Assembly (NCBI GenBank): GCA_963768425.1
Contig: CAVYHV010000014.1
Span: forward strand, 192,001 to 256,000
DNA length: 64,000 nucleotides
From: Candidatus Bathyarchaeota archaeon
Lineage (GTDB): Archaea > Thermoproteota > Bathyarchaeia > Bathyarchaeales > Bathycorpusculaceae
Reading direction: 5' to 3'
Within the stretch, counting starts at the first letter, position 1; every line of letters begins with the position of its first letter. The notes beneath the pieces are model-generated. The model saw only the letters and a program-made list of their open reading frames with translations, was not told the origin of the DNA and did not search any database. Positions 11,739 to 17,687 of this stretch are shown here, one piece after another. Position numbers and translations under genes: made by a program.

Positions 11739-12583
11739 AACGCGCTGAAGTCATTTACACTTTTGCTCGGTACGAAATCAAGCGTGCCATCGCACGAAAA
11801 AAAGTTTTGGCTCTAGTCGCTTTCACGATACTTTTGAGTGTACTACCATATTATGCGTTGTCACAAGCAGGAACTACCCTGATTCCCTCAAACGTCTACC
11901 CATATCTTTGGGTTTTTGCAATACTATTGGTTGGCCCTCTTTTCTTAAACTTCACAGCAATCCTGATAGCTGCAGGGTCAATGTCAGAAGAATACGAGCA
12001 AGGCACTGCCGAACTTCTTTTATCAAAGCCAGTAAGACGAAGCGACTACATCGCGGGTAAATTCTTCGGGGGGTATGTTCTGTTTCTTTTTATTCTTACT
12101 TTAACCCTTGTCCTATCCATTTCATCAGCATTCACTTTTTTTGGCGTCCAAGACAACCTTTACCTAATTCCTGGATTATTCATAGCTCAAGCTTTTAGTT
12201 CACTGTTATTCTTTTCTTTAGCGTTCATGCTTGGAGAACTAATCAGGCGCTCTTCTCTTGCTTACATTTTCTCGTCAGCGGTTTTCTTTTCAAGTTACAT
12301 CATAAGCATTTTTTTGAGTGCAATCTTTAGGGCTACGGGCAAAGTGGTCTACAAGACTGTTCAGATGTATCTTCCAACTTCGGCAGCAAGTTCGCTTCCT
12401 ATTCAATATGCTTTACCGAGGCTTCCGCCGACTGTATCAACAGCCCTTACTTTTATCAGCACTTCAACTCTCCGGCCCACAATTAGCTTCTCAATTGAAC
12501 TCCTGCTAGTCTACATAATTGTAGCAGTAACAATTGCCGCAGCCTACTTTTTGCATGCCGACATTTCAAGAAAACTAAGTTAA
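11735..12583 (+). CDS. ABC-2 type transporter permease
   Basis: SEEYEQGTAELLLSKPVRR..GKF motif, ~6 TM segments, overlaps the ATPase stop. Confidence 0.9.
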   Translation: MKRAEVIYTFARYEIKRAIARKKVLALVAFTILLSVLPYYALSQAGTTLIPSNVYPYLWVFAILLVGPLFLNFTAILIAAGSMSEEYEQGTAELLLSKPVRRSDYIAGKFFGGYVLFLFILTLTLVLSISSAFTFFGVQDNLYLIPGLFIAQAFSSLLFFSLAFMLGELIRRSSLAYIFSSAVFFSSYIISIFLSAIFRATGKVVYKTVQMYLPTSAASSLPIQYALPRLPPTVSTALTFISTSTLRPTISFSIELLLVYIIVAVTIAAAYFLHADISRKLS

Positions 12584-12702
12584 TCATGCTTGGACGGGCG
12601 CATTATTGTACGTTAACAGTAGCAGGCTAGATTTCCCATGTGTTACTTTTGACTCTTACCTGATGGTATAACATAAAAGCGTGTTTAGGCAACATACCCA
12701 AG

Positions 12703-14100
12703 ATGACCTTAACTCTAAAATGCATTCACTGCTCCAGTGAATTTCAAGTTTATCCTTTGAGAAGTAACTGTGAAAAATGCGGAGGTACATTGGAATTTGC
12801 AGCAGAATTACCTGAAGCAAGGAACCTTCGGTTTTCTGGGCAACCTGGATTCTGGCGATACAGACAGGTGCTTCCACCTGTTAAGCATGAAGTAAGCTTA
12901 GGAGAGGGTGGGACTCCCCTGCATAAGGCTGAGAGACTGGCTAAAACAGTCGGGTTAAAAGAACTCTATTTAAAAGATGAAACACGTAATCCCACCAACA
13001 GTTATAGGGATCGGGCTGCCGCTTTCATGACGTCAAATGCGATTGACCAGGGCTTTGAGACACTTGTATGTGCCAGTAACGGGAATATGGGAGCTTCTTT
13101 AGCCGCTTACACTGCAAAAGCAAACTTGATCTGCCACGTGTTGGTCCCAAAAATCGTCGATGTAGGCAAGTTGGCGCAGATGATTGCTTACGACGCCGTC
13201 ATTGAGGAGTCAGGTAACATTGTAGATGATTCCATTCGCAAAGCCGCTGATCTAGCCAAGGAAACTGGTTGGTACCAAGCCACCGCCGAACTTAACCCGT
13301 TAGTTGTTGAAGCCCAAAAAACCATTTCATACGAAATAAACGAGCAGTCCGCGACTCCAAATTGGGTGATTGTGCCAATGGGAAGCGGCGGAACAATCTA
13401 TTCGCTTTGGAAAGGCTTCAAAGAACTCAAAGAGTTAGGGCTCGCTGACTCTCTGCCTCGAATGGTCGGGGTTCAGACGGAAGGCTGCGCTCCAATAGTC
13501 AATCAACTGAAAGATAACGCGCCATCGAAATCCTTCAGCCCTTCAACCCGTGCATTAGCTATTCTCGTAGGTGAACCGTTGCAAAGCGACTTAGCTGTGA
13601 AAGCAATTCACGAGTCAAACGGGTTGGCTTTAACTGTTTCAGACAGCGAAATTTTGGCTTCCGAGCTATTGGTAGCAAAGCTGGAAGGGGTCTTCGCTGA
13701 GCCAGCAAGTTCAGCCACCGTGGCAGCGCTGCAGAAACTGAAAGAAAAACAGATTTCAACACACGACAGCGTTGTTTGCCTCATCACTGGGAGCGGCTTA
13801 AAATCGACGGATGTTTTGCAGGCTCTGAACAAAAAGCAAAAAACAGCTGGTTTGGGGCTGGCGGTTAGTACTAAGCAGAAGATTCTCAAGATTCTCAGTG
13901 AAAAGGATTCATATGGTTATGATTTGTGGAAGCAGCTGGGGCAGATCATGACACGCGCAGCCGTGTATCAGCACCTTAATGAGTTGGCTGATAGGGGGTT
14001 GATAGTGAGCTATGAGCAAGATGGGAAGAGATTTTTCCGCATTGCTGAGCGAGGTAGGAAGGTTTTGGCTGCGTTTGATGAGATTCAGTTGCTTATGTGA
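12703..14100 (+). CDS. Threonine-synthase-like (fold-type II PLP) domain fused to a C-terminal winged-helix (PadR/ArsR-like) domain; PLP lysine replaced by Arg
   Basis: Zn ribbon CIHC/CEKC, SLGEGGTPL, NPTNSYRDR (canonical NPTGSFKDR), EPASSA, ITGSGLK; C-terminal KILKILSEKDSYGYDLWKQL..RAAVYQHLNELADRGLI. Confidence 0.85.
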   Translation: MTLTLKCIHCSSEFQVYPLRSNCEKCGGTLEFAAELPEARNLRFSGQPGFWRYRQVLPPVKHEVSLGEGGTPLHKAERLAKTVGLKELYLKDETRNPTNSYRDRAAAFMTSNAIDQGFETLVCASNGNMGASLAAYTAKANLICHVLVPKIVDVGKLAQMIAYDAVIEESGNIVDDSIRKAADLAKETGWYQATAELNPLVVEAQKTISYEINEQSATPNWVIVPMGSGGTIYSLWKGFKELKELGLADSLPRMVGVQTEGCAPIVNQLKDNAPSKSFSPSTRALAILVGEPLQSDLAVKAIHESNGLALTVSDSEILASELLVAKLEGVFAEPASSATVAALQKLKEKQISTHDSVVCLITGSGLKSTDVLQALNKKQKTAGLGLAVSTKQKILKILSEKDSYGYDLWKQLGQIMTRAAVYQHLNELADRGLIVSYEQDGKRFFRIAERGRKVLAAFDEIQLLM

Positions 14101-14127
14101 GTTTTGGGAAAATACTTATTAGGCATG

Positions 14128-14159
14128 ATAGCTGCAACTATAATATAGTTACAACTATA
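14128..14159. promoter_or_regulatory. Tandem palindromic operator-like sites upstream of the ECF S-component gene
   Basis: ATAGCTGCAACTAT (14128-14141) and perfect TATAGTT-AC-AACTATA (14144-14159), 17-bp spacing, just downstream of an AT-rich TATA-like element (~14111-14121). Confidence 0.6.
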
Positions 14160-14174
14160 CTAAAGGCGACAAAC

Positions 14175-14726
14175 ATGGGATTCCGAACTGAACAAGGAAG
14201 AATAACACTCACAGTTGCACAGGCGGGAATCATGGCGGCGTTGGTCGCAGTCGCAACATTTGCAGTGCAGGTTCCGATCCCAGCCACCAAAGGGTACCTA
14301 AACTTCGGCGACATCATGATCTTCGCCAGCGCCCTAATTTTCGGTCCAATTGTCGGCGGTTTCGCAGGCGGCGTTGGATCAGCATTATCTGACGTAGCAG
14401 GCGGGTATGCCTCAACGTATGCCCCATTCACGCTTATTATAAAGGGTGCAGAAGGAATAATTGCAGGATTAATAGCTAAAAGGGGAAGCAAGAAAAGAAA
14501 CGTTTTGGCGGTCGCTGTTGCAGGGGTAGAAATGGTGTCAGGATACTTCTTGGCGGAGTTCTTCGGCCTTTCGTTAGGTTGGGCAGCAGCGACTGAGGTT
14601 CCGTTCAACATCTTGCAGATAGCTGCAGGGGGTGCTATAGGCATCCCAATATCCATAGTTATTCTGAAAAGACTCCCTGAAACTTGGATAAGACAAAGCC
14701 AGACAAGAGAGGTTGGGACAGCTTAA
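14175..14726 (+). CDS. ECF transporter S component
   Basis: A.GIMAALV, PIPATKGYLNFGD, G..GG.GSALSD, TLIIKG motifs; ATG at 14175. Confidence 0.9.
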   Translation: MGFRTEQGRITLTVAQAGIMAALVAVATFAVQVPIPATKGYLNFGDIMIFASALIFGPIVGGFAGGVGSALSDVAGGYASTYAPFTLIIKGAEGIIAGLIAKRGSKKRNVLAVAVAGVEMVSGYFLAEFFGLSLGWAAATEVPFNILQIAAGGAIGIPISIVILKRLPETWIRQSQTREVGTA

Positions 14727-14752: not shown

Positions 14753-15761
14753 ATGAAGCTGCCGCCTGGAAAAATTCCTATTGAAATCCTGAAAGAAACA
14801 GTTTTCAAGAACTTGGGCGCACAACGAGGCGAAGTCGTTTTGGGTCCCGCTGCAGGATTAGACGGCGCAGTTTTGGATGTTGGAAACAAGAACGCCATAG
14901 TCTCGATGGATCCGATAACGGGTGCAGTTGAGCGTATAGGTTGGGAGGCAGTTAACGTTAACGCCAACGACGTCGCAACTTTCGGAGTTGAACCCTCCTT
15001 TCTGTTTTCTTGCCTGCTTTTGCCAGAGAACGCTCAAAGCGAAATCGTACAAACCCATAGCTACCCAAATGAACGCTGCCGCAAAAGAGCTTAACATCGC
15101 AATCGTCGGCGGGCACTGCGAGTCAACACCAGGGTTGTCAAACCCGATCGTAGTGGGCTGCATCATGGGATTAACTGAAAAAGGCAAATACGTCACCGCT
15201 GCAGGCGCAAAGACCGGCGACAAACTGATTTTGACAAAGAGCGCTGGCATTGAAGGCACAGCCATCTTAGCCTCTGATAGGGAAAAGCAGCTGAAAAAAG
15301 TCTTCAACCTCGCGTTCCTTGACAGCGCCAAAAATTTTTACAGCCAAATCAGCGTGGTAAAAGACGCCTTGACTGCTTACAGGTCAGGGGGAGTCCACGC
15401 GATGCACGACCCAACCGAAGGAGGAATCCTAAACGGGATCCACGAGTTGGCGGATGCGGCAGGATTGGGCGTGAGGGTTTTTGAAGAGAAAATTGCTGTT
15501 GAGCCTGAAACCGCTAAAATCTGCCGTTTCTACGAAATTGACCCGCTACAGCTTATCAGTTCAGGCGCATTGCTCATTGCAGCTGAGCCGGAAGCAGCAC
15601 CTAAAATAATTGAAAGCCTCAGCGAGGAACGAATCTACGCCGACGTCATAGGAGAATTTAACCCGAACCCGAACAACCGCATACTAATGCATAAGGACAA
15701 TTCGGCGGAGATGCTGCCCCGACCCGTCTCAGACCACCTGTGGGTCGCACTTTCTCACTGA
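14753..15761 (+). CDS. AIR synthase (PurM/HypE/ThiL superfamily)-like protein, one frameshift ~15055
   Basis: GKIP, DPITG, NANDVAT, GGHCE and AMHDPTEGG motifs across two ORFs. Confidence 0.88.
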
Positions 15762-15775
15762 CACAATTTGAAATG

Positions 15776-16642
15776 TCAGGATTCAATCTTTGTTTTTAAT
15801 GGTTTTTCTTCCGAAAAAGGAGCCATCTTTCCGGAGTTAGGTTGGAAGACTACAGTGAGGCCAATTGTGCTTTGATAGATTTTGGGTTTCGGTTTTGAGT
15901 TATTTCTAAACCAGTTCAGGGGAACTTGGAAGATCCAGTTGAGCAGAAAGGCTGGGTAGAAGAGCATGTATCCGTACAGGTGCGAGTAGACTAAGCCGCA
16001 TTTGAATTCGACTATGGCTTGTGAGAACCCAGTTTTCACATTCCAGCTGGTCGGCGGCTTGTAGTGGAGGCAGTAGGCTTCAGATGCGACACAAACTTTG
16101 TATCCTTGATCTTTGATGTGCCTGATGACATGAGCGTCTTCGTAGGTATGCAGGTGCTCAGGGATCTTTATGCCCGCCACTGCCTTGGTTAGAATTAGTG
16201 TGTCATGGGTTCCACCACGCAACTTGAAGCATTCCCGGGCAAGTATGCCCTGCAAAAGAAGAACCCGTTTGTCTGTTACGTTTGGGATAACGTCGACGTT
16301 TAAACCCCAAACCGCTGCAACCCCATTTTTCAAATCTGTTTGCGCTTTTTTATACCAGTCCTTGCAAAGGACGACGTCGCTGTCGACAAACAAAAACCGT
16401 TCCGTGGTAACGTGCCGTATGCCTTCGGTTCGCGCTTTAGCCCTTGAACCGTCAACTTGAAAAAGTGCAACGTTTCCGTGCGCCTTGTTGAAGCCGTCGA
16501 GAATTTTCAGGGTTCCGTCTGTTGAGAAGCCGTCAATTACAATTAGATTTTTGACGGGCACGTTTTTATAAATTGACGTTAAACAATTGCTGAGTTTGTG
16601 CGCACTGTTCTTAGTCAGCAATACAACGTCAACTTGATCCAT
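15776..16642 (-). CDS. Glycosyltransferase family 2
   Basis: VVLLTKNS, DGFSTDGT, FVDSD (DxD), YEDA. Confidence 0.9.
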   Translation of the reverse strand: MDQVDVVLLTKNSAHKLSNCLTSIYKNVPVKNLIVIDGFSTDGTLKILDGFNKAHGNVALFQVDGSRAKARTEGIRHVTTERFLFVDSDVVLCKDWYKKAQTDLKNGVAAVWGLNVDVIPNVTDKRVLLLQGILARECFKLRGGTHDTLILTKAVAGIKIPEHLHTYEDAHVIRHIKDQGYKVCVASEAYCLHYKPPTSWNVKTGFSQAIVEFKCGLVYSHLYGYMLFYPAFLLNWIFQVPLNWFRNNSKPKPKIYQSTIGLTVVFQPNSGKMAPFSEEKPLKTKIES

Positions 16643-16703: not shown

Positions 16704-17438
16704 TTAACGCTTCCCCTCTCGCCTAGCAACCTCATAAAGCGCGTAGCCTGAGTAAAACGCGTAGGCAGCTAGCAACCTGCCAATCAACCATACATCCCCA
16801 AGCGTAAGAGCCTCAGCAAACAAACCTATGCTTCCTCTAAGTGTCCAAACGTTCGGCGGACGGTAATGAACGCAGAATGGGATGTAGCATGGAATTACGC
16901 GGTAGCCTTTTTGTTCAATCCAATCTTTTATGTATGCGTCTTCATAAACATGGAGTTTTTTTGGAATTTGGATATCTTTAACGAGTTCTGTTTTAATGAG
17001 GGTGTCGTGGGTTCCGCCGCGGACCTCAAAAATTTTCCGTGTAATCCGCAAAAAAAACGCCATAGTCACTGGGCTTTCAACGGTTGACCAAATCTCTGTT
17101 CCCCAAACCGCACCAACATCCTCCTTGATGTACTGTTGGGCTTTTTTGTACCAATCATTACAGAGGATGACATCACTGTCCACAAACAGAAACCATTCTG
17201 TGTTTACGTCAGCTATGCCTTTTTGGCGTGCAGTGGCACGGTTGCCTTTGTCCATTATGATTTTTACGTTGTGGTATTTTTCGTCAAACCAATTAAGAAC
17301 ATCCAAGGTTTTGTCCGTTGAGTATCCGTCGACTGCTATGAGTCGGGCAACTGGCACGTTGTTATACACGGATTCTAGGCATTCTTTGAGTTTTCTGTCG
17401 CTGTTCTTAGTCAACAGCACAACGTCAACCGAGTCCAC
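16704..17438 (-). CDS. Glycosyltransferase family 2 (paralog of neighbour)
   Basis: Same motifs; probable GTG start at 17438 after AAGGAG. Confidence 0.9.
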   Translation of the reverse strand: MDSVDVVLLTKNSDRKLKECLESVYNNVPVARLIAVDGYSTDKTLDVLNWFDEKYHNVKIIMDKGNRATARQKGIADVNTEWFLFVDSDVILCNDWYKKAQQYIKEDVGAVWGTEIWSTVESPVTMAFFLRITRKIFEVRGGTHDTLIKTELVKDIQIPKKLHVYEDAYIKDWIEQKGYRVIPCYIPFCVHYRPPNVWTLRGSIGLFAEALTLGDVWLIGRLLAAYAFYSGYALYEVARREGKR

Positions 17439-17687
17439 GCAACCATCTCCTTTCTTGACCGCTAAGTTAACGGTCAACTCATAGAGGCTATGCAAAACAA
17501 CTTAAAAAACAACTTGCTTGACAAAACAATAAGGGTTGAATGTTTGCGCAAAAAATAGCCAGAAAACTTCGCATTTAACGCACAAGTTAGCGCTATACAA
17601 CCGATTCTGGGCTGTACAATCCGTTTATATTTTCGCATGAACTACAGGAAAATGAGTTCAGAGTCTTTTGTGTCTGAGGCGGGTTGA

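Follow-up and report, generated by a model that had tools for sequence, protein, structure and literature searches.

A threonine-synthase-like protein fused to a winged helix is a candidate regulator of vitamin B6 genes in Bathyarchaeota

The known regulators of vitamin B6 metabolism belong to the MocR family, proteins in which an N-terminal winged helix-turn-helix (wHTH) of the GntR type is joined to a fold-type I aminotransferase domain that has kept its lysine. According to the available excerpt of PMC5320631, this family is not present in Archaea. Free pyridoxal 5′-phosphate (PLP) is reactive and toxic, and the excerpt of PMC9997740 at hand states that how cells hold the free pool low while still supplying their enzymes has yet to be determined, and that alternative B6 kinases are still to be found. 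Here we present the analysis of a gene in a stretch of 64,000 nucleotides (hereafter the window) from contig CAVYHV010000014.1 of a Candidatus Bathyarchaeota archaeon, which encodes a protein of the threonine synthase (ThrC) fold with a PadR-like wHTH at its C-terminus (Table 1). The original prediction, made from the letters of the window, had taken it for a pseudoenzyme repurposed as a metabolite-sensing regulator. Our analysis points more narrowly to a one-component transcription factor of the vitamin B6 regulon, not a threonine synthase, that would sense PLP and bind an operator; judged from sequence, we hold this reading to be right with a probability of roughly 70%. It builds on the architecture of the protein, a family-wide loss of the catalytic lysine, and a strict association of operator, regulator and target genes, to which it would add that the protein binds DNA, that its ligand is PLP, and that it represses its targets with the help of PLP acting as co-repressor.

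Table 1. Features of the regulator locus, in window coordinates
Feature	Position	Strand	Basis or description
Regulator gene	12703..14100	+	uninterrupted open reading frame (ORF), 465 amino acids; zinc ribbon, ThrC-like fold-type II PLP domain, linker, PadR-like wHTH
N-terminal CxxC...CxxC zinc ribbon (C7, C10, C23, C26)	12721..12780	+	domain name inferred from motif
ThrC-like PLP-fold domain, residues 64-363	12892..13791	+	Pfam PALP, E 1.6e-73
Codon AGG (Arg102) in place of the Schiff-base lysine	13006..13008	+	alignment to 2d1f and 2zsj
C-terminal PadR-like wHTH, residues 390-464	13870..14094	+	Pfam PadR, secondary structure of the model
Candidate operator	14124..14162		strong 22-bp palindrome at 14141-14162, weak second site at 14124-14145, 17 bp upstream
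ECF (energy-coupling factor) transporter S-component gene, PdxU/HmpT family	14175..14726	+	PF07155, E 6e-37
AIRS/PurM-superfamily gene (HypE/ThiL-like)	14753..15761	+	Pfam AIRS and AIRS_C in two frames

Read from its N-terminus, the protein begins with a zinc ribbon whose cysteines are well kept in an alignment of 60 family sequences (A1): C26 is invariant, and C7, C10 and C23 are each conserved in at least 90%. The body that follows is closest, among solved structures, to ThrC (2d1f at E 3.4e-61 and 2zsj at E 4.5e-61, with 35-39% identity to solved ThrC), and it scores 207.8 bits with the threonine synthase model TIGR00260, whose cut-off is 167.1. At the other end, residues 394-456 match PadR (PF03551) with E 1.8e-9 and 37.9 bits, above the Pfam cut-off of 27; the Pfam scan of the window protein returned no GntR or aminotransferase family, finding PALP (fold-type II) and the C-terminal PadR domain instead. 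Nearly the whole chain, residues 5-458, aligns to positions 2-441/442 of the NCBIfam model NF004170 (PRK05638), with 409.4 bits against a cut-off of 421, a cut-off exceeded in 5 of 41 related genomes. The structure predicted by AlphaFold2 from 60 family members, with a mean predicted local distance difference test score (pLDDT) of 91.5 and a predicted template modelling score (pTM) of 0.84, consists of a ThrC-like body, a low-confidence linker at 379-387, and a helix-helix-helix-strand-strand-helix arrangement at 390-464 with pLDDT of about 93-97. Foldseek matches the body of the model to ThrC structures with a template modelling score of 0.88 over the target, so that model and comparison together support the ThrC fold plus wHTH that had been read from the letters. 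No solved chain covers the fusion of the two domains in either the PDB sequence comparison or the Foldseek comparison. Within the wHTH, helix 418-430 carries the near-invariant Y422, Q423 and H424 of the family alignment and, going by the layout of such domains, is likely the recognition helix. Modelled as a homodimer, the protein reaches an interaction prediction score from aligned errors (ipSAE) of 0.77 against 0.00 for the best control, the runs share at least 58% of their contacts, and the pLDDT of the partner does not fall below 86; of proteins solved as pairs, 20 of 30 reach the mark used for this score, as does 1 of 23 solved as single chains. The modelled interface is formed by the ThrC-like domain, and because solved ThrC dimers exist, the pass may come from likeness to them.

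In fold-type II enzymes, the Schiff-base lysine carries the PLP cofactor. The window protein reads NPTNSYRDR at residues 96-104, ASNGNM at 124-129 and PMGSGGT at 225-231, opposite NPTGSFKDR, ASTGNT and PVGNAGN in the alignments to 2d1f and 2zsj; every sequence detail listed in the original prediction, from the arginine codon and the altered motifs to the wHTH, proved correct by ORF, alignment and Pfam. Arginine stands at the motif in 119 of the 120 closest homologs listed (73-100% identity), the remaining one giving no match to the search pattern, and the fetched loci encode it with AGG 14 times, AGA 10 times, CGA 5 times and CGC once, CGN codons being two changes away from any lysine codon. 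A sequencing error at codon 102 is ruled out by this recurrence of arginine in close homologs together with the four different codons used for it; the contigs of four public runs, which derive from close relatives and leave 13006-13008 unchanged among the differences listed, add little.

The loss extends well beyond the closest homologs. We sampled the family as the query plus 150 relatives from a search of 1.84 billion cluster representatives (50% identity). Of the sequences with a C-terminal extension, 7 have lysine at this position, 2 have a gap, and the other 72 have a different residue, the replacements being L (18), R (16), I (15), V (6), T (5), M (4), F (3), and S, N, Y, A and H (1 each); in those without the extension, the counts are 66 for lysine, 3 for arginine (fragments of 131-247 amino acids) and 1 for valine. 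Five of the seven extended proteins with lysine are 610-622 amino acids long, and both of those tested by Pfam have a LeuA_dimer domain and lack a wHTH. Among true fusions (400-520 amino acids), the lysine is absent in 72 of 74, and it is present in 66 of 70 unfused relatives, so that its replacement does go with the wHTH as had been supposed; the term pseudoenzyme suits most fused members and fails for the family as a whole, a few of which keep the lysine.

What has been kept is as telling as what has been lost. We compared the fused set with the 53 positions that are at least 85% conserved in 64 unfused relatives, which were chosen as lysine-bearing, so that the lysine column is conserved by construction: 42 of these positions are kept, 10 are partly kept, and one, the lysine, is lost. 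Such near-complete retention argues that purifying selection maintains the pocket and that the catalytic residue can be dispensed with, which is the pattern one expects, as far as sequence can tell, of a ligand sensor. A FastTree phylogeny of 74 fused and 56 unfused cores separates Arg-type fusions, hydrophobic-type fusions and unfused proteins into three groups, placing the two lysine-bearing fusions inside the Arg-type group and the fused P0148 with the unfused group; from this unrooted tree we draw no conclusion about the order or number of fusion and lysine-loss events.

Two kinds of sequence at the edge of this sample deserve a word of their own. The proteins of 610-622 amino acids (P0238, P0248, P0255, P0256 and P0270) are lysine-bearing ThrC homologs, for two of which, P0238 and P0255, Pfam shows a fusion to the LeuA allosteric/dimerisation domain, possibly making a feedback-regulated enzyme. 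P0236 (519 amino acids) is ThrC-like with valine in place of the lysine, has no detected wHTH, and carries an N-terminal extension of 184 amino acids without a Pfam match.

Between the stop codon of the fused gene and the S-component gene lies a palindrome with the consensus TAGTAwAGTT-NN-AACTwTACTA, of which the strong site in the window is a copy with one mismatch, ending 12 nucleotides before the S-component ATG. It came to light behind the fused gene in 8 of 9 related genomes compared, in addition to the window, the ninth locus ending at a contig edge. The surrounding segment, 14128-14165, contains two tandem units of 17 nucleotides and two inverted repeats. The adjacent palindromes of the original prediction are thus present downstream of the gene and missing upstream of it, no repeats having been found in 12560-12720. 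In a scan of the whole genome (G000: 33 contigs, 2,958,400 bases, 91% complete), the strong site is the only one at four mismatches or fewer; 12 sites appear at five mismatches, including the adjacent overlapping one. Across 97 loci totalling 757,728 bases, the motif at three mismatches or fewer gives 27 distinct matches in 25 distinct places, each of which immediately precedes an S-component gene or pdxS. In one locus (L028), the palindrome precedes an S-component gene that is 3.6 kb away from the regulator. The palindrome is conserved between families whose proteins are only 52-62% identical and whose flanking sequences diverge. In most loci, it ends 1 to about 26 nucleotides before the start codon and abuts an A/T-rich, TATA-like sequence, a position that would block the archaeal pre-initiation complex, from which we infer repression. 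Two extensions were considered and set aside: autoregulation through an upstream palindrome, as 12560-12720 holds no repeat and no motif precedes the fused gene in the Bathyarchaeia loci, and a larger regulon in the same genome, given the single site at four mismatches or fewer.

A different element was seen in more distant lineages. In 9 of 11 fused loci examined from Thorarchaeota and Nitrososphaerota (L043-L045, L050, L058, L059, L062, L064 and L092), the sequence CCTATATAT(A/C)GG, preceded a few bases upstream by ATATATAA, occurs once per locus, either immediately before the fused gene or, where an S-component gene or pdxS is divergent from it, in the intergenic region that the two share, and a looser look-alike precedes pdxS in G044. 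As a hint only, this could be a clade-specific operator that shares a CTATA half-site, or it could simply be divergent TATA boxes.

The genes that the palindrome precedes are predicted to serve vitamin B6 import and synthesis. Against the PDB, the S-component has one match below E 1e-4, chain 4hzu_S (E 5e-16), from an entry that we take to be the HmpT ECF transporter of L. brevis; the other chain listed up to E = 1 is weak and unrelated. The entry fits PMC4860826, where an ECF transporter was crystallised in its complete four-component form and, in the available part, pyridoxamine is given as the preferred substrate of HmpT; the family PF07155 includes the B6 transporters PdxU and PdxU2/HmpT (PMC9997740, in excerpt). 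On these grounds, the S-component gene is a candidate target of the regulator and a predicted importer of a B6 vitamer, and it would form one predicted operon with the AIRS-like gene as second member.

Synteny was examined in 42 unfused ThrC loci and in 38 fused loci from named public genomes, the fused ones drawn from Bathyarchaeia, Jord-, Thor-, Hermod- and Promethearchaeia, Nitrososphaerota, Desulfurococcales, Thermococci and Methanomethylicota. An S-component gene flanks the fused gene in 29 of 38, one further locus (L092, Nitrososphaerales) has a divergent pdxS-pdxT pair, and neither an S-component gene nor pdxS-pdxT occurs at any of the 42 unfused loci. Within the set of 41 genomes formed by G000 and 40 relatives, PdxS is found in three, one copy being broken, and in each of these three the palindrome stands before it. 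G016 has the order fused regulator, palindrome, pdxS, pdxT, AIRS-like gene; G004 shows the same order in decay; and in G020 the regulator and the S-component gene share one contig while a perfect palindrome lies 17 nucleotides before pdxS-pdxT on another, which is the behaviour of a regulon and not of adjacency alone. In the genome of the window itself, 91% complete, neither PdxS nor PdxJ was found and an EcfT module is present, making B6 import plausible and fitting a B6 auxotroph that imports a vitamer. Comparative genomics (synteny, operator placement and co-occurrence) strongly supports what had been drawn from the window alone, a connection of the gene with the palindromes, with the S-component and with the AIRS-like gene. 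The computational checks proposed with the original prediction all spoke for it.

The distribution of operator and regulator among close relatives makes the same point in another way. In the order to which the genome belongs (41 genomes, G000 included), an intact regulator is found in 19, with one further broken copy, the S-component ortholog in 35 and the AIRS-like ortholog in 40. Thirteen genus-mates have the S-component/AIRS pair without the regulator, and in the roughly 500 bp around their S-component starts the motif is matched with 6-9 mismatches at best; in four other genus-mates, which have the regulator, it is present at 1-2 mismatches. Across genus-mates, operator and regulator are gained and lost together. 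Several of the regulator-less genus-mates (L103-L114) have a short conserved element, approximately AACTATAACGCTGTGA, before the S-component start codon, which could be a 5′ leader, a ribosome-binding region or the site of another regulator.

The AIRS-like gene is the less certain member of the pair. Its protein resembles HypE, ThiL and SelD below every cut-off, the ThiL models giving 92.8 bits against a cut-off of 184, and an assignment as ThiL was rejected because the true thiL elsewhere in the genome scores 246.7 bits against 63.9 for the window gene. An imported vitamer would need a kinase in a B6 auxotroph, and a PdxK/ThiD-type kinase was not found in the 91% complete genome and appears as at most a weak match in 1 of 25 genomes of the genus; from its context, the co-regulated AIRS-like gene is a candidate for that kinase. 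The distribution does not support it, in any simple way, as a strict replacement of PdxK, its ortholog being present in 40 of the 41 genomes, including those of other families with a PF08543 protein. In the window, the gene has a frame break near 15054, where a CCC run has an extra base that the contigs of all four public runs lack, and an intact ortholog of 335 amino acids exists in G020; the likely cause of the break is an assembly error in the homopolymer or a frameshift peculiar to the strain. The four runs, whose contigs come from relatives sharing at most 0.30 of the sampled words, settle the indel at 15054 and are silent on expression; the pieces seen in one RNA library (X24) are no evidence of transcription. 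On the same contig of the genome, about 86-88 kb upstream of the window start, a paralogous cluster (G000:C14:103613-106482) combines another S-component of PF07155 (34.6 bits) with another AIRS-like gene, which shares 34% identity with the G020 ortholog, and with a TIM-barrel that matches PdxS weakly; an S-component plus an AIRS-like enzyme may be a recurring import-and-trap module. Downstream on the opposite strand are two tandem paralogous ORFs of 288 and 263 amino acids (15776-16642 and 16704-17495, both on the minus strand) that share long similar stretches.

Taken together, these observations suggest the following model. The ThrC-like domains would form a dimer, whose two C-terminal PadR-like winged helices would bind the 22-bp palindrome over the region from TATA box to start codon. 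The promoter bound in this way would be that of the S-component and AIRS-like genes here and of pdxS-pdxT in relatives. The lysine-less pocket would bind PLP reversibly, without a covalent link, and its occupancy would track the free pool; the PLP-bound protein would occupy the operator, and import and synthesis would be shut off. The identity of the ligand and the sign of control are read from gene context, operator position and feedback logic, and among the ligands named in the original prediction, gene context favours a B6 vitamer, most likely PLP, over phosphohomoserine or an amino acid. A bolder version, which we regard as tentative and rather doubtful, would make this the first example of an undescribed, archaea-wide family of B6 master regulators that use a lysine-less ThrC fold to bind PLP reversibly, with the AIRS/PurM-like protein as a new, non-orthologous B6-vitamer kinase that would trap the imported vitamin wherever a PdxK/ThiD-type kinase is not found.

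Several observations weigh against the B6-regulator reading. The lysine is kept in 2 of the 74 fused representatives and in six of the fetched fused loci, mostly from Asgard archaea; five of these six adjoin an S-component gene, and the sixth (L034) is at the end of its contig, where no B6 gene can be seen. Lysine loss is thus not required for the role, and such members could be catalytic. No B6 gene flanks the fused gene in 8 of the 38 loci, in four of which the gene lies about 150 bases or less from the end of the stored locus, and one Bathyarchaeia-like locus (L025) has the S-component gene without the motif at three mismatches or fewer. Most of the 21 genomes of the order without an intact regulator keep the S-component/AIRS pair, so regulation must be dispensable. 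The palindrome overlaps the A/T-rich, TATA-like sequence, and the confident interface of the dimer model contains no wHTH residue at all. Finally, Glu41 and His84 of HmpT, which contact pyridoxamine according to the excerpt of PMC4860826, align to Asp and Lys in the S-component of the window.

The alternative that comes closest keeps the B6 regulon and changes its effector or its sign: the protein might respond to pyridoxamine 5′-phosphate, pyridoxine 5′-phosphate, pyridoxal or a PLP-amino-acid adduct, or it might activate instead of repress. We consider this unlikely, if well short of negligible. Many pocket positions beyond the cofactor loop are kept, which would suit another effector. The glycine-rich loop is kept too (G227 and G229), and this loop, which presumably binds the cofactor phosphate, points to a vitamer that carries a phosphate. 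For the nearest solved S-component, the preferred substrate is pyridoxamine (PMC4860826, in excerpt), and positive control has a precedent in the PdxR of Corynebacterium, which activates pdxST to judge from the title of reference 21 in PMC9997740; an operator between a TATA-like sequence and the start codon, however, occupies the position of a repressor site. Much less probable is a regulator of the salvage of hydroxymethylpyrimidine (HMP), the thiamine precursor, with a true HmpT, a ThiL-like kinase and a sensor of HMP-phosphate. Whether HmpT carries HMP or a B6 vitamer had been an open question, as the excerpt of PMC4860826 notes, and the AIRS-like protein does match the ThiL models weakly, but the operator precedes pdxS-pdxT in G016, G004 and G020, in L092 pdxS-pdxT runs divergently from the fused gene, the genome has a proper thiL in another place, and the sensor has a PLP fold.

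The palindrome might also have nothing to do with the wHTH, being a hairpin in RNA or DNA (a terminator or attenuator) or a plain promoter, with the wHTH serving some other role. A mirrored T/A change at positions 6 and 17 would suit a stem as well as an operator, and the element does follow the stop codon of the fused gene. Its nucleotide sequence, however, is conserved across families while its flanks are not, it occurs before pdxS away from the fused gene and, in L028, before an S-component gene 3.6 kb removed from the regulator, the 13 genus-mates that lack the regulator lack the element too, and its spacer is only two nucleotides, so that we give this explanation very little weight. Least probable of all is that the annotation is right and the protein is a working or bifunctional threonine synthase. 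It does exceed the TIGR00260 cut-off and falls near that of NF004170, and its source names are all threonine synthase or PLP-dependent enzyme; against this, the residues that replace the Schiff-base lysine are chemically unrelated (R, L, I, V, M, T, F and others), a canonical lysine-bearing thrC sits beside a homoserine-dehydrogenase-like ORF elsewhere in the genome, and in L012 a canonical thrC adjoins the fused gene yet has no operator nearby.

That second gene, whose existence had been posed as a check on the idea, is on contig C17 of the same genome. It is a TIGR00260 match of 351.8 bits with the motifs NPTGSFKDR, ASTGNT and PVGNAGN intact, followed by an ORF of 351 amino acids that we read as homoserine dehydrogenase from its translation alone. 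This canonical thrC (G000:C17:77124-78256) is itself split between the zinc ribbon and the body at a GGGG run (about positions 1500-1510 of locus L001). The AIRS-like gene and the canonical thrC therefore both break at homopolymers, which we read as homopolymer length errors or strain differences, and the pair of frameshifts suggests indel errors in this assembly. In five loci (L012, L024, L028, L029 and L030), a canonical lysine-bearing ThrC gene of about 410-425 amino acids lies 0.1-0.8 kb upstream of the fused gene on the opposite strand, an arrangement which hints that a neighbouring thrC was duplicated to give rise to the regulator; an operator was not seen near any of these thrC neighbours.

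If the B6-regulator reading is correct, its consequences reach beyond this locus. The ThrC-wHTH family would supply an archaeal counterpart to the MocR regulators and would show for a second time, independently, how a PLP enzyme fold can become a sensor. The operator would serve as a ready marker for the genes of the B6 regulon, including an AIRS-like gene that may fill the B6 kinase gap. It would also correct a systematic misannotation: the database names for the protein say threonine synthase or PLP-dependent enzyme, just as the original prediction had warned that pipelines would call it thrC, and such names would inflate calls of amino-acid prototrophy in reconstructions of Bathyarchaeia, Asgard archaea, Nitrososphaerota and Thermococci. 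A member of the family in the cultured Thermococcus chitonophagus (WP_068578498.1) makes the idea testable. As for novelty, a literature search that was thin on subscription journals and took in neither the supplementary tables of PMC9997740 nor those of PMC5320631 found no published transcription factor of the ThrC-like or fold-type II PLP type and no published archaeal B6 regulator; the fused architecture is already catalogued, as an enzyme, in NF004170, which is named as an equivalog of threonine synthase. That model spans the whole fused architecture, as the window protein does; the protein falls just under its cut-off, and the enzyme name conflicts with the missing lysine.

Each half of the protein has well-described relatives from which the whole departs. 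With ThrC (EC 4.2.3.1) it shares the fold, the N-terminal zinc ribbon of the archaeal type and most of the conserved positions; it differs in that the Schiff-base lysine is gone, a wHTH has been added, and the genomic context is B6 transport and synthesis instead of threonine synthesis. Classical PadR proteins are small, with an N-terminal wHTH and no enzyme-like sensor. Our protein resembles these repressors in a wHTH that scores above the Pfam cut-off, a helix after the wing in the model, and a palindromic predicted target, whereas its own wHTH is C-terminal and joined to an enzyme-like sensor.

Among regulators derived from enzymes, ThiR is an archaeal example of the same logic. Likewise, RbkR (a riboflavin kinase with a wHTH) and GfcR combine an enzyme-like and a DNA-binding domain to control the genes for synthesis and transport of the matching metabolite, according to excerpts of PMC5397151 and PMC10838023. 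The proposed B6 regulator would follow this archaeal pattern, in which enzymes are recast as regulators of vitamins or sugars. The sensor fold and the vitamin differ here from those of all three, and RbkR is still an active kinase (PMC5397151, in excerpt), whereas catalysis is most likely gone in the protein of the window. The closest parallel remains MocR/PdxR of Bacteria, where, as here, an enzyme-derived sensor of a PLP fold is fused to a winged helix and a dimer is predicted to bind repeated boxes. The regulons reconstructed for PdxR comprise pdxST, pdxK and pdxU, as the available part of PMC5320631 reports, and the operator described here precedes a PdxU/HmpT-like gene or pdxS-pdxT. The construction is nevertheless different at each step, the wHTH being C-terminal and PadR-like, the sensor a fold-type II ThrC, and the lysine usually lost, so that the ThrC-wHTH regulator looks like an invention independent of MocR and a functional analogue of PdxR.

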